This document shows positions 42,801 to 48,800 of a stretch of 64,000 nucleotides of DNA, piece after piece. The translations under genes were made by a program, and so were the position numbers. This stretch comes from Owenia fusiformis (taxonomy: Eukaryota). The stretch's first letter is position 1; each line of letters opens with the position of its first letter. The notes beneath the pieces were generated by a model that saw only the letters and a program-made list of their open reading frames with translations, had not been told where the DNA came from and did no database searches. Location of the stretch: NCBI GenBank assembly GCA_903813345.2, contig CAIIXF020000001.1:2914001-2978000 (forward strand). Reading direction: 5' to 3'.

Positions 42801-45800
42801 AGTGAGTTATTACATAAACAAGTTGATTATTTCAAAGTTTTCATGATCAGTATAAGTAGTAGGAAAATTGGTCCCATCAGCTCAGGCTGATCACGGCTGA
42901 TCAGTTAAAACCGGAAGTCAGCCATTTTGACAGGAAGTCAGCCATTTTGACCGGAAGTCAGCCATTTAACCAGAAGTCGGCCATTTTGAAGCTCTCTGAC
43001 AGGAAGTCAGCCATTTTGAATTCTGTCTGGGCAAGAAGGTGACATCATAACGGAAGTGAGGCATCTTTGAGTCGGTCTGGGCAGGTTTTAAAACGGAAGT
43101 TAGCCATCTTTTATTCGGTCTGGGCAGGTTAATGATTTCATAGAGGAAGTTCAACCATTTTAACTTTGCCTGGGCAAGTGGATCATATTTTTGGCAGGAA
43201 ACGTAAAGGTAGCCATATTGATAGCCTTATATCATATGAATAAGGATTACGATGGCATTGGTCTCACTCGAATCATGAATACATTATGCAAGATCACTTA
43301 ATTGCTCTTGAAGCATCTATCTTTAGGAATCTTTAGTTAAAATTGGGGAATTTAGAGAGGCTCATTTTTTAATTTTTGACCAAATTTATGTTAATCATGT
43401 TAGGTACACTATAGTCTCAATGAGAAATGGGGGATGGTTATATATAACAACTTCACCTGTCTCTCTACTTTCACTTATGAACATAACACGAATTCTTTCA
43501 ACACACATAAAATTTTATTTGCATATAATACAGCATGATATACATCATAATTACATTTCTATACAATATTTACAAAAATGTTATATCAGAGTCCTTGACC
43601 CACGAGTCAAACTTTTTAGGCCAATATTGCCAACGCACTAAATGTTCCTTTTGACCCTTTCTTGTTCGGGTTTTTAGGATCTTTTCCACCTTCCAAATAT
43701 CATCTTCATTTGCTTGTACCCTCTGGAGCTCTGCTTGGTAAAAAGTACCCTTAATGTCTTCATTTTGAAAATCTTTTAAACGATACAGTGGAAGGCCCTG
43801 TCTGATGAAACGTTGCGCTACTTTAAAAATTTCACCAGTCCAATGCTCGTTGTATTCTCTTGTAAAAATATGTTTCGATTGGGTAATTCTAACCAAAGCT
43901 CCAATGGGAAATTTAAATATATATTTTGACCTAGTTTTAACAGCAGCTGATTTGGGATAGTACATCCGCCACCAAATGGCCAGTTCATCGTCTTTAGATA
44001 CATTTTTAGGAGCCATCTTTATGCTCCTATGCCAGGTGGCATTATAACTTTTAACAACATTTTGCAAATCGTCTATATATCTATAGTTCTGTTTATATAT
44101 CATAAACCTCATTATTTTCGTCTTCAATGTCTTTATAAGACGCTCGGAAAAATTGGCTTTGGGTGTATTTTCCGTAACAAAATGGCGTACTCCCCATCGA
44201 GCCAGCAATGTCTGTACGACCCTCGCACGAAATTCTTGACCTTTATCCGTTCTAATGACATCTGGTTGACGCTGCCCTTCTTTGAAGATGTCATCAAAGG
44301 CCTCTGCAACAGCTTTACCCGTCTTGTTAGGTAGAGGCTTAACCCAGGCAAAACGGGACATGATGTCAATGACGACTAGGATAAACTTCGTATTGTCATT
44401 CTCTGTTGACCAAGTAGACATATCCATGAGATCAGCATCCCATTGTTCATCAATATGTGAAACATATACTTTGTTCCGAGTAAATTGTCTCTTATAAGGT
44501 CTCTGTAGGCCATAAGCTTCTTGATTGTCCAGCCATTTCTTTATCTGATAACGGGACAGCTGGTATTTCCCATCATTTAGTACAGCTCTATAGAGTTTGT
44601 CTGGTCCAGCAAAAGCTCCAGAATTTCGACTGTCAAAGTATAATTTCTTTAAATAGTCTCGATATGCCATCTTACACTGTCGGAATCTGACTCCTTAATG
44701 ATGATCTCTCTTAAAATCACTAATATTTATCACTCAGTGCTTGATTCAACAGCCTCGTTTTCGGATTCACTCGGTTCTTCCTCAGAGCTACTTTCCTGGT
44801 CTGTATCCTCTATAAAGACCTCATCAAACTTGTGTTTGTTTTTTAAAAGCGTCTTCCTAATGGCTAAGTTCACAGAGACACCCCTCCTCATCATATTATT
44901 TATCGAATCGATTATATTTCTGTGTAACGCATTGTCTTTTACATCAACTGTTAGCTTGACAAATTGTTTATATCCTTTCATAAATTCTTCCTTATACTTC
45001 GATAATAGTTTATTATCTGCCTTTTCTACGGCCGCTGTCTTATCCATCCCTCTATCCATATACTCATCCACTTTACGTCGGTGGTCTTCCTCATTCTGTC
45101 TTATAGACCACTTCTTTAAGAATGCAAATGTTTCATTTGCTTTCAAATCACCATCATCGTCATCAACGTCATTGTCTTTGTCTTGAGGAATCTTCTCCTC
45201 AATATTTTGGGTAGATTGGGTCCTCACCCTCTTGGGTAGCGGTCCCTGATCTTGACACCAATTTTTTATATGCCTCTGTAAGTCGTGAATGCTATCAAAT
45301 ACTAAACCACATTCATCACACGATACCATGTTGTCTTCTCGAACTTCAGATTCCAAGTAAGGGTAGTTCTTAACATCACTACTATTTATAAATGTCGTCG
45401 GATAGCCCACTTCTGAAATACCCTGTCTTTCAAGTAAGTGCTTTGAATCATTCATTGGTTCCTTGAAGTTGCGGGAATCGTGATGACTTTCTAATTCTAC
45501 CTCACTTTTAGTAAAGGCATTTGGTTTCAATCTGTTTTGTTCCGAGGTTTCTTGCTTCAGATCAAGAAGCAGGTAACCATAGGGTCGAGAAGTTGCGTTG
45601 GTATATGCTCTGACCAACTTGTTTCCATTTCCGGGGTACATCTGCCTCGATAAGAATGCCACCTGTTGGCGATCTCTCGGGTTATTGAATAGTATCATAT
45701 AGTGAGAGTTTAAGCTCATCGATCTATTCATTTTTCCTTGATGATACATATTCTGGAGCAGGCATATCACAGACAGATTTCGATGGTGACTGCCTTTGCT

Positions 45801-48800
45801 ATAGAGATCACATATCCGTTGATCATTTGTTGCTTCATTCATAAGATCATCGAGAAGTATCAAAGTAGGAACCGAAGTGTCAAGGTATCTTGAATCATCA
45901 ATATCCTCTGGTATTCCCTTCACAAATTCCAAACTTGGGTTTTTTCTTAGCTCTTCGTAGGCAGGCTGCCATTGATCATAACACCAAATAATTCTTCTAG
46001 GAATTGGGGATATATACCGTTCAACATTTTGAATCAAGTGCTTCATAAGCCAGGTCTTCCCCGACGATGTTGGTCCGGCTGAAAATACAACAAAAAATAT
46101 TTTTTAATAAATTGACACAATCTCTTTCTATATTTAAACATCAATCAGACTTTTTATTTCAACATGTCCATGCCTATACCTGCTATCATAGTAAACGGAT
46201 GTTTCAGCATAACATCAGACTGATGCATTTTTTCTCCATGAAACTTATTCATATGCCTTGATAGGTTATCACCTCTCGTAAAATTCACACTACACTCAGA
46301 ACAATTGAAAGACATGTTGTCTGTTCAAGATCTATCAGTAAAATGACTCAAAACATGGACAACTTAAAATATATAAGAATATTCTAATGTGCAGTATTTT
46401 GATTGGTTCAAAATGTGTCAATTAATATAAATTGTAAACATAAACAGGCATTTATGACATTATAAACTATTGAATATTAAAGTAAAGGGAGGGGAGGAGG
46501 TTTGGAAGATGGAGAAGAGACAGGAGGAGGTTGGGTGGAAGTAGGAGGAGGTATGAGGTAGGGAGGAGGTAGGGAGGAGGTGGGAGGAGGTAAGGAAGAG
46601 GTTGGAGGAGGTAAGGAGGAGGTAATGATGAGGTAGGGAGGAGCGGGAGGAGGTGGGAGGAGGTAAGGAGGAAGCGGGAGGAGGTAGAGAGGAGGTGGGA
46701 GGAGGTAAGGAGGAAGCGGGAGGAGGTAGAGAGGAGGTGGGAGGAGGTAAGGAAGAGGTGGGAAGAGGTTACGAGGATATATGGAGGATGTAATGATGAG
46801 GTAGGGAGGAGGCGGGGGGGAGGTAAGGAGGAGGTAAGGAGGAAGTGGGAGGAGGTAGGGAGGGAGTAGGGAGGAGGCGGGAGGAGGTAAGGAGGAGGTA
46901 AGGAGGAAGTAGGGAGGGAGTAGGGAGGAGGTAGGGAAGGGATAAAGAGGAGTTAGGGAGGATGTTGGAGGAAGCGGAGGGAGGTAAGGAGGGGGGGGGG
47001 GGGGGGTAGTACTTACTTGCTTATCTTATAATGACCATGTGCCAAAGTCCTGATCCCGTCATCTAGCACATACCTCTTGTCATCATATGGATTAAGAGTA
47101 ATTTTTTTGATCTTTAACATGTATATCTCATGTTTGAAAGACCTGAATTGCTTCATACATCCCATAGATAGCTTATGATCTAGCACTGCCTCTCTATAGT
47201 CGTCATGAGTGATGGTGTTCTTGACAACTGCTCTAGTAACCCCCTTCGCAGTTTTCTTGGCTTCACTAGCCACTAACAGAGAATACATCTTTGGTTTTAA
47301 ACCAACAAATTCAGATGGAGGTATCCCCGCGGTTTCATCTTTAAATTTCCCGATGACTTTCTTGTTATCTAAAGAGAATAATGGGTGGTCCTTCGGAAAG
47401 TCAGATGTATCGTAAAGATCCTTTTGCTGACCCATATCTGCATAAATGTCATCTGTGTATATGTGATAACACAGGCTGAAATATAAAATATAAACACATA
47501 ATACTACTTTATTAGTGATAAAATAGTTATACTAATGATATAAACACAACAATATTATTATAATATGTAAATCATTTTTGAAACATAAATACCTGTCAGT
47601 ATCTGTAAAAAGAAGAGTTGCATCGTCTCCATATGTCGGAACAATATGATCATAGTGGTAATTGTACATCAGTGTCTTGCTGACATCAAGAATGGTGAAG
47701 CCACAGTATATTGGGCGGTTAAGGTAGAGCTTAGTTTTCCTTAGTTCAACAGCGGCCAGATCTTCATTGAATATGTTGAAGGCATAAAAGCTCGGTTTGC
47801 AGACTAATTTCCGGAGTCTTTTATCTTTATTTACAAGCTCAATCTGTCTCCGTCGGCGTAAATTTTCACAGGTTTTGCCAAAGACACTGAAAACAGATAA
47901 GATTCTCAATTAATAAGATTAATATGAATTGAGGATGTCGATTTAATTACTTAAATAATTTATATGACTTAACTATAGAGCATCTCACCTGTTGTTCATT
48001 AACTTGAACAGATCCTTTTCAAACGCATTCTTTGCCAGCTTTCTTCTTTCTGTATTGAGATCGATATATGATTTCAACCATCTTGACTGCTTGAAGGTTA
48101 TCGCACGATGTATTTTCCTGAGTTTTAAGCCATATCTCATATATTGTTGAAGGTTTCTGTAGTGCACAACATATTTTTCTTTGTTGCTCAGATTGGGAAT
48201 CAACTTCTTCGTTGTATTACAATTCAGCTCTAGGTCTTCAGCCAGATGTTTACAGAATGGAGAGATTAGGTCATTGTCTAAACAACACGATTCAGGGGCC
48301 AATGGATAGTCTGAATGGATATCATGCAGATTTTGAGGATATTCCAAATCCACTTCAAGAAAGTATCCATCCTCTGCATCCTCTGCAATGTTGTTTATAT
48401 CTAGGTCGTTGATTTCATCTTCACCCAACCATCTAAATCCATGTGTTGGCAAAGGTTTACTCATGGCCCAACCATACAGATTGTTTGCATCGACATATGA
48501 TATATACGATTTTGGCTCATCTGGAGAATAGTCGGACATATACGGGTTGTTGGCTTTAGCATATCGATGGGAAATCATGGCTATACCACCTCGGAGCCCA
48601 GCCTCAATAAACAGATGCATATCTGGATCAGTGAATAATTCTAACCTCACCCCTGTGTACTTTAGTGCGGCATTCCACGCTAATCCAGGAGCAGTGTAGA
48701 AATGAGCAGGATCAAGGTCATAAAGATTCATTGAGAGAGTTCGGAAGTTTTCAAAGACATCAGCCAGTAGCAGAACATCTGTCTTCAGATATAAATTGTG

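Follow-up and report, generated by a model that had tools for sequence, protein, structure and literature searches.

A zinc-finger-bearing packaging ATPase and its upstream GAG tract: a candidate self-recognition cassette in a capsid-less Polinton of Owenia fusiformis

Why would a mobile element without capsid genes keep the motor that packages genomes into capsids? The question is raised by a 10,083-bp element at positions 42855-52937 of a 64,000-nucleotide stretch of the Owenia fusiformis genome (assembly GCA_903813345.2, contig CAIIXF020000001.1, positions 2,914,001 to 2,978,000 of the forward strand; hereafter the window, in whose coordinates we give all positions). The element is a Polinton derivative without a capsid gene; it has terminal inverted repeats (TIRs), is flanked by a perfect 6-bp target-site duplication, and encodes a protein-primed DNA polymerase B (pPolB), an ATPase, and an integrase. 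We propose, with about even confidence, that the ATPase and a GAG-rich tract upstream of its gene form a cassette that would load the motor on the element's own genome for packaging into the capsids of helpers. The components of this putative cassette are as follows.

46500..47010, plus strand: GGAGGAGGT tract, about 510 bp, with periods of 10-11 and 21 bp and 74 GAG triplets; predicted target of the exon-1 finger
46370..46406, minus strand: CCAAT (46406-46402) and TATA-like (46375-46370) words between the tract and the start codon, read from the sequence, which we take to be a possible promoter
46180..46315, minus strand: ATPase exon 1, 136 nt, a C2H2 finger followed by an HPF motif, with the helix R(-1) G D N(3) L S R(6); zf-C2H2 E 3e-5
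46079..46179, minus strand: phase-1 spliceosomal intron, 101 nt, directly before Walker A, at the same position in families A, A2, C and C2
44730..46078, minus strand: ATPase exon 2, with Walker A, core, linker, C2HC finger, helical tail and acidic end, from the open reading frame (ORF) and a structure model
45510..46076, minus strand: A32/FtsK-HerA ATPase core, whose closest fold is the packaging NTPase B204 of Sulfolobus turreted icosahedral virus (STIV)
45255..45320, minus strand: C2HC zinc finger, near-invariant between lineages by sequence and dN/dS (nonsynonymous over synonymous substitution rates)
44799..45146, minus strand: helical tail domain under purifying selection, for which no family or solved relative was found

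The intron, 46179-46079, begins with GT and ends with AG, is 76% A+T, carries stops in all three frames, lies at a conserved position, and restores the reading frame when removed, so that the two exons sum to 494 codons. Our search for related ATPase genes in the Owenia genome scored 150 of 226 candidates. In the best 30 loci, which include that of the window, exon 1 measures 136 nt without exception and GT/AG is kept in 30/30, while the length of the intron ranges between 90 and 115 nt and takes all three phases. The exon 2 frame stays open over its whole length in 25 loci, is interrupted or truncated in 2, and was extracted in part for 3; a stop falls within exon 1 in one copy. The interruption is at the identical base in families A, A2, C, and C2 (we use letters for families of related elements), and in intronless relatives the finger, HPF, and Walker A lie within one frame, in family B at the spacing that the splice predicts. 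The free length variation and the intronless relatives rule out a frameshift in place of the intron. The earlier note on this DNA, made from the letters alone, had placed a C2H2 finger in exon 1 and joined it over 101 nt to Walker A, and this model is borne out. For the check that it proposed, reads across 46180/46078, no splice joint was listed in three RNA runs at a depth of about 0-4 reads; copies and relatives speak for the intron. These three raw runs yielded 52, 40, and 73 reads on 43500-46450, mostly one-sided in two of them, and no RNA match to the element was listed among indexed runs.

What kind of protein is this? Exon 1 encodes the pattern C-x2-C-x12-H-x3-5-H with base-contacting residues at helix positions -1, 3, and 6. 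The structure model of exon 2 is confident for the ATPase core, the C2HC finger, and the helical tail (predicted local distance difference test, pLDDT, >90 in the tail), and the C2HC-type finger, helical tail, and acidic end that the earlier note had read after the core are present by both sequence and model. The core matched STIV B204 best (Z 11.7, root mean square deviation 3.5 A, 169 residues aligned, 16% identity), and STIV B204 stands in the top Foldseek rows as well. VirB4 and DndH tied with it within 1 Z, so the fold alone leaves the function unfixed. The Pox_A32 profile matched exon 2 weakly (E 0.006) and an intronless relative at E 3e-6, and weak matches of the Adeno_IVa2 profile were found on intronless relatives (E 2e-5 to 4e-4). 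Whole-model searches for the fold of the tail were filled by the ATPase core, a sequence search of the PDB with the tail matched zinc fingers only, and none of 14 candidates was a stand-alone C2HC-tail protein of 30-245 aa.

The gene does not behave like a relic. Measured against four A2 copies, two of them mapped as pPolB elements without capsid genes, dN/dS is 0.05-0.07 for the core, and A versus A2 comparisons gave 0.13-0.19 for exon 1 and 0.18-0.24 for the tail. The C2HC finger stands at 0.02-0.03 between A and A2 copies and at 0.02-0.04 against diverged relatives. Among close copies, the ratio of nonsynonymous to synonymous polymorphism is 0.20-0.27 for core, exon 1, C2HC finger, and tail versus 0.63 for the linker. 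Judged by these rates, the ATPase is under purifying selection among capsid-less copies, in agreement with the earlier note's view that it is kept intact, and neutral decay of the gene is ruled out.

If the motor is kept, on what DNA might it act? By the C2H2 code, the exon-1 helix R-G-D-N-L-S-R reads GAG, and a GAG tract lies upstream of its own gene. In Table 1 of PMC1920264, the selected fingers RSDNLTR and RKDNRKR came from GAG and RSDSLTR and RRDSRIR from GTG, while RSDELTR reads GCG and RSDSLTR was selected on ATG too; RSDALTR was obtained on GTG (PMC2634973, Table 1). The TIRs hold at most 3 GAG or CTC each, against 74 GAG in the tract, which makes the TIR repeats an unlikely target of this finger; L176/L177, with GAG-richer TIRs and no upstream tract, are a possible exception. 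Finger and repeat go together in the families of the Owenia genome: RxDNxxR with GAG tracts (A, A2, B, C, F), RKDSxxR with GTG tracts (H, I), HATSMYR with TGTTCAC repeats (F2, D), and HxSSLxR with ATGCTA/TAGCAT repeats. The short fingerless ATPases of this genome have no upstream repeat.

The pairing extends to a set of 122 loci, 41 chosen from the Owenia genome and 81 from metagenome or viral contigs (the viral contigs contributed 1), of which 53 have a finger and at least 200 bp upstream. Representatives were taken by 65% core cluster and residue 3 from fingers with Arg-1 and Arg6; fingers without both arginines and one with Ile3 were left out. The predicted GNG triplet (Asn3/GAG, Ser3/GTG, Asp3/GCG) is the top triplet in 12/16 representatives (permutation mean 4.1, P about 1e-5) and in 8/12 when the metagenome loci are taken alone (P 3e-4), both optimistic P values for the reason given below. 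A tract is present in 35/50 finger-bearing loci, and its orientation varies by lineage. On a tree of 64 rows, from which most fingerless metagenome loci were left out, the Asn3 class changes at least 8 times and the Ser3 class at least 3 times. The sisters L092 and L095, with 87% DNA identity over finger and ATPase, differ in both partners: GAG runs accompany RKDNMQR in one, and GTG runs accompany RKDSMQR in the other. L095 is of the Ser3 class and L084 of the Asn3 class, and these two share the spacer between runs. Linkage alone would not predict such a joint switch. One apparent tract, the CCA tract of L071, was rejected as coding poly-proline. Taken with the recognition code, these pairings make it very probable that the exon-1 finger binds the GAG tract. 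The idea in the earlier note of cis-preferential loading into helper capsids gains support from the finger-tract pairing, with the target shifted from the TIR repeats to the GAG tract as the likely site.

Is the architecture peculiar to elements without capsids? Genes for a double jelly-roll major capsid protein (MCP), a penton, and a cysteine protease, by which virion-forming Polintoviruses are recognized, were not found in the element: MCP and protease ORFs of relatives, used as queries, match nothing in the window (best E 0.3), and between the TIRs no unassigned long ORF is left over for a capsid or protease. No penton gene was identified in any Polinton family examined in the Owenia genome. 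We matched the coordinates of ATPase, pPolB, and MCP search rows with a neighbor limit of 6 kb; the pPolB search reaches close relatives only, and pPolB absence was checked on maps for five capsid-only loci. The C2HC-tail is present in 112/150 ATPase rows, of which 22 lie within 6 kb of an MCP gene, 28 near a close pPolB, and 2 near both. A complete 14.5-kb Polinton carries pPolB, long ATPase, and integrase in the window order and then a capsid module. The MCP assignment itself comes from a 449-aa ORF of family F that has a double jelly-roll fold on a low-confidence model (pLDDT 42.6); the top rows are all jelly-roll capsid or scaffold proteins, the Atlas supports it with a double jelly-roll-like family on 30% of one cluster, and by sequence the candidate has no Pfam or PDB match. 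Scallop, pearl oyster, and many marine contigs contain full-length homologs equipped with finger and tail. The architecture is common among relatives that code for capsids. Acquisition of the fingers thus did not accompany loss of the capsid, and finger-ATPase-C2HC-tail is ruled out as a mark of that loss. What stands of the earlier note's view of a packaging ATPase kept without a capsid is thus the retention; the supposed tie between architecture and capsid loss falls.

An MCP within 6 kb is absent from all 49 ATPase rows at 70% identity or above. On the tree, the ATPases of the capsid-less families A, A2, B, and C group as a single clade (support 100/99), and nearly all polymerase-type, capsid-type, complete, and miniature elements of the genome keep the ATPase gene. 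This runs against the concerted loss described by Krupovic et al. (PMC4028283), where nine MCP-less Polintons had lost protease and ATPase as well. Capsid-only elements with a GAG-reading finger also exist (family F). In this family, tract and long ATPase stand on a capsid module 97-99% identical to one beside a short ATPase without tract, a swap which indicates that the tract/long-ATPase cassette can stand in the packaging slot.

Smaller members of the group vary in what they carry. Near-identical 4.4-kb minis with ATPase and integrase (L155, L158, L159, L160, L152, L161) have a hybrid end, the outer 244 bp of which are 97% like family C termini (checked for L159) and the inner part like the window TIR. 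Other minis of 4-7 kb (L037, L043, L035, L046, L047) combine the long ATPase with an ORF of about 150 aa that is related to the gene upstream of MCP in full elements and had no Atlas match. The termini of family E are 91% like those of F2, and those of H resemble the short-ATPase family J. Gene-free derivatives with the termini of the window element keep only these termini and the tract (3/3); the gene-free derivatives L203 and L204 are fold-back structures in which the tract is duplicated in inverted orientation. Two core-less elements (L166:3452-4417 and L167:6552-7517) have pPolB, the GAG tract, and a 322-aa finger-C2HC-tail ORF from which the ATPase core was deleted in frame; L167 has a damaged C2HC finger and a stop in pPolB.

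Considering these data, we propose the following scenario. The element would come from a clade of Polintons whose packaging ATPase bears its own DNA-specificity module. The N-terminal C2H2 finger would bind GAG triplets, with the tract upstream of the gene as its target. As a single finger binds weakly, specificity would presumably come from several fingers on an oligomeric ATPase ring that meet a tandem array spaced by about one helical turn. Tract and finger-ATPase would together form a self-recognition cassette that marks the element's own genome and loads the motor there, and capsid-less, polymerase-less, and miniature members would be packaged in the capsids of other family members in the same nucleus. 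The same binding probably feeds back on the neighboring promoter, as with adenovirus IVa2.

Several observations weigh against this scenario. The tract lies just upstream of the CCAAT/TATA-like words, as a promoter element would, and in full-length elements it is found mid-genome, unlike the packaging domain of adenovirus, which sits close to one end. Finger and tract lie side by side and can be transferred together. The Asn/Ser rule came from the Owenia genome before the metagenome loci, and the full table and threshold were fixed afterwards, which makes the P values optimistic. Of the 4/16 misses, two concern loci whose upstream DNA extends over only 211 and 309 bp, another is nearly a tie, and the last is clear; the tract is absent in 15/50 finger-bearing loci and present in 10/56 fingerless ones. 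Among three independent deletion junctions, two lie within the tract (46972, 46861) and the third is close by (47133); retention of the tract could therefore reflect a breakage hotspot. The core-less ORFs show that finger and tail can be kept without the motor, the termini of A and F have no similarity beyond the first bases, and at the low RNA depth, with no joint listed, the unspliced intron is covered by one RNA run and one contig.

Part of this evidence would suit a close, though less probable, rival, that the finger binds the tract solely to control its own promoter, by activation through the acidic tail or by repression, with the motor packaging in trans or riding as a passenger. In the element, about 100 bp separate the tract from the CCAAT/TATA-like words downstream of it, in several metagenome loci, too, TATA-like words follow the tract, the core-less ORFs are kept in frame in two elements, and the whole covariation evidence fits promoter control equally well. 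Against it, the tract persists in all three gene-free derivatives, where no gene is left for a promoter to drive, and the account leaves unexplained why the ATPase core is so strongly selected in a lineage that lacks capsid genes. That the ATPase was instead re-used in replication, excision, or integration, with the finger placing it on the element, is an improbable account: the gene is kept in 26/26 close-pPolB rows at 70% identity or above and in the 4.4-kb ATPase-integrase minis, and FtsK/HerA folds translocate DNA in many settings, yet the same architecture stands beside full capsid modules and replaced the short packaging ATPase in family F, elements with pPolB and without an ATPase core exist, and no residue change was seen that would indicate a new function. 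No finding points to the new role in replication or integration that the earlier note had also envisaged.

A further account would make the match an artifact of linkage and low-complexity DNA, the tract a replication-stalling hotspot, and the conservation of the ATPase a consequence of capsid-less copies often deriving from unseen complete viruses. In its favor, 200-300 bp separate the finger from the tract, deletion junctions are concentrated at the latter, the code has degeneracy (RSDSLTR was selected on ATG too; PMC1920264), and only 150/226 ATPase candidates were scored. We consider it very improbable even so, since agreement with the recognition code extends over three classes, several clades, and either orientation, the match switches between sisters, and the capsid-less ATPases are one clade without a capsid-bearing member among 49 rows. 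Loading of the motor on the element's own genome for helper packaging stays our proposal, at the even confidence given at the outset.

The remainder of the element is that of a Polinton/Maverick, with pPolB (DNA_pol_B_2 profile match, E 1e-13), rve integrase, FtsK/A32-type ATPase, (AGT)2-ended TIRs, and a 6-bp target-site duplication:

42849..42854, plus strand: target-site duplication AGTATA, left copy, 6 bp, from the sequence
42855..43135, no strand assigned: TIR at the integrase end, beginning AGTAGT and containing 20-, 43-, and 50-bp repeats
43570..44670, minus strand: rve integrase with C-terminal chromodomain, 366 aa; rve E 4e-11, Chromo E 4e-7
47013..51305, minus strand: pPolB, five exons, 1280 aa, with three N-terminal C2H2 fingers
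51305-49538, 49443-49358, 49220-47989, 47886-47593 and 47475-47013, minus strand: pPolB exons, with GT/AG, no in-phase stop, and an intronless relative
52630..52937, no strand assigned: TIR at the pPolB end, final letters ACTACT
52938..52943, plus strand: target-site duplication AGTATA, right copy, 6 bp, from the sequence

The positions of the four pPolB introns are partly shared with the introns or insertions of other pPolB genes in the capsid-less clade (L031, L033, L168, L169) and partly lineage specific, unlike the polymerase of capsid-coding F2, which has no introns; the gain of introns may go along with existence as a resident transposon. Of the three C2H2 fingers at the pPolB N terminus (51065-51280), the third has the helix RKDNLKN, which resembles the ATPase-finger helix. 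The 20-bp TIR repeat (42910-42989 and 52803-52880) contains CCGGAAGT and GCCATTTT, which we take to resemble ETS and YY1 sites. Elsewhere, the window contains other repeats and host genes: inverted repeats like those of miniature inverted-repeat transposable elements, a 1.49-kb duplication with 162-bp units, and a 23-bp minisatellite (10726-12794, 13212-14273, 2903-5865, 9274-10171), together with an MFS transporter, a thermolysin-like (M4) peptidase in a long single frame, a ligand-gated ion channel, and an SRCR protein (6281-7873, 32291-33655, 36860-38688, 59844-62634).

If the proposed scenario is true, it would explain why capsid-less and miniature Polintons retain a packaging motor. The finger-tract pair is a candidate packaging signal and reader for Polintons, and a rare natural case in which a single zinc finger and its target repeat would have evolved together; the natural variants Asn3/GAG, Ser3/GTG, and Asp3/GCG offer a ready specificity set. 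In the literature searched, we found no description of a Polinton ATPase fused to a zinc finger or of a repeat that matches it, although Repbase reports, subscription journals, or supplements may contain one, and no Polinton packaging signal (the literature including PMC8502044, PMC3671162, 10.1101/2023.08.22.554363, and 10.64898/2026.10.13.758929). Polintons without polB are described from butterflies (10.1101/2025.02.07.637071). A coral survey kept solely regions with MCP, minor capsid protein, and ATPase (PMC11131425), and elements like that of the window would have been filtered out by it.

How does this element compare with known systems? With the adintovirus-like Polintons/Mavericks of animals, it shares pPolB, rve-chromo integrase, A32-type ATPase, (AGT)2 ends, TIRs, and the 6-bp target-site duplication (PMC8097293, PMC4028283). 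It differs in its size of 10 kb, in the absence of any identified MCP, penton, or protease gene, with MCP loss not accompanied by ATPase loss, and in an ATPase of 494 aa with two zinc fingers and a helical tail in place of about 220-240 aa; it also has five spliceosomal introns, in contrast to intact vertebrate Mavericks, which have been described as free of introns. STIV B204, the best fold match of the core, has neither fingers nor tail. Adenovirus IVa2 is a related packaging ATPase that binds the A-repeats of the packaging domain as well as promoter elements (PMC4404914); in the window ATPase, by contrast, specificity is predicted to come from a grafted C2H2 finger acting on a lineage-variable triplet microsatellite, and the tract adjoins the ATPase gene rather than a terminal repeat. 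Phage satellites (PICIs, and PLE with GpsA/GpsB and a pac site) are likewise capsid-less elements that steer helper packaging to their own DNA (PMC11417361), as the window element may do. They mostly use the motor of the helper, whereas this eukaryotic element would bring a whole motor fused to its specifier and take the capsid from a helper. We tentatively extend this comparison to the whole genome, as a possibility somewhat short of even: polymerase-only, capsid-only, complete, and miniature elements might complement one another as a divided helper-satellite virus population within one genome, each tagging its own DNA by a swappable one-finger/triplet code fused to the motor, a eukaryotic counterpart of the terminase-pac pairs of satellites.

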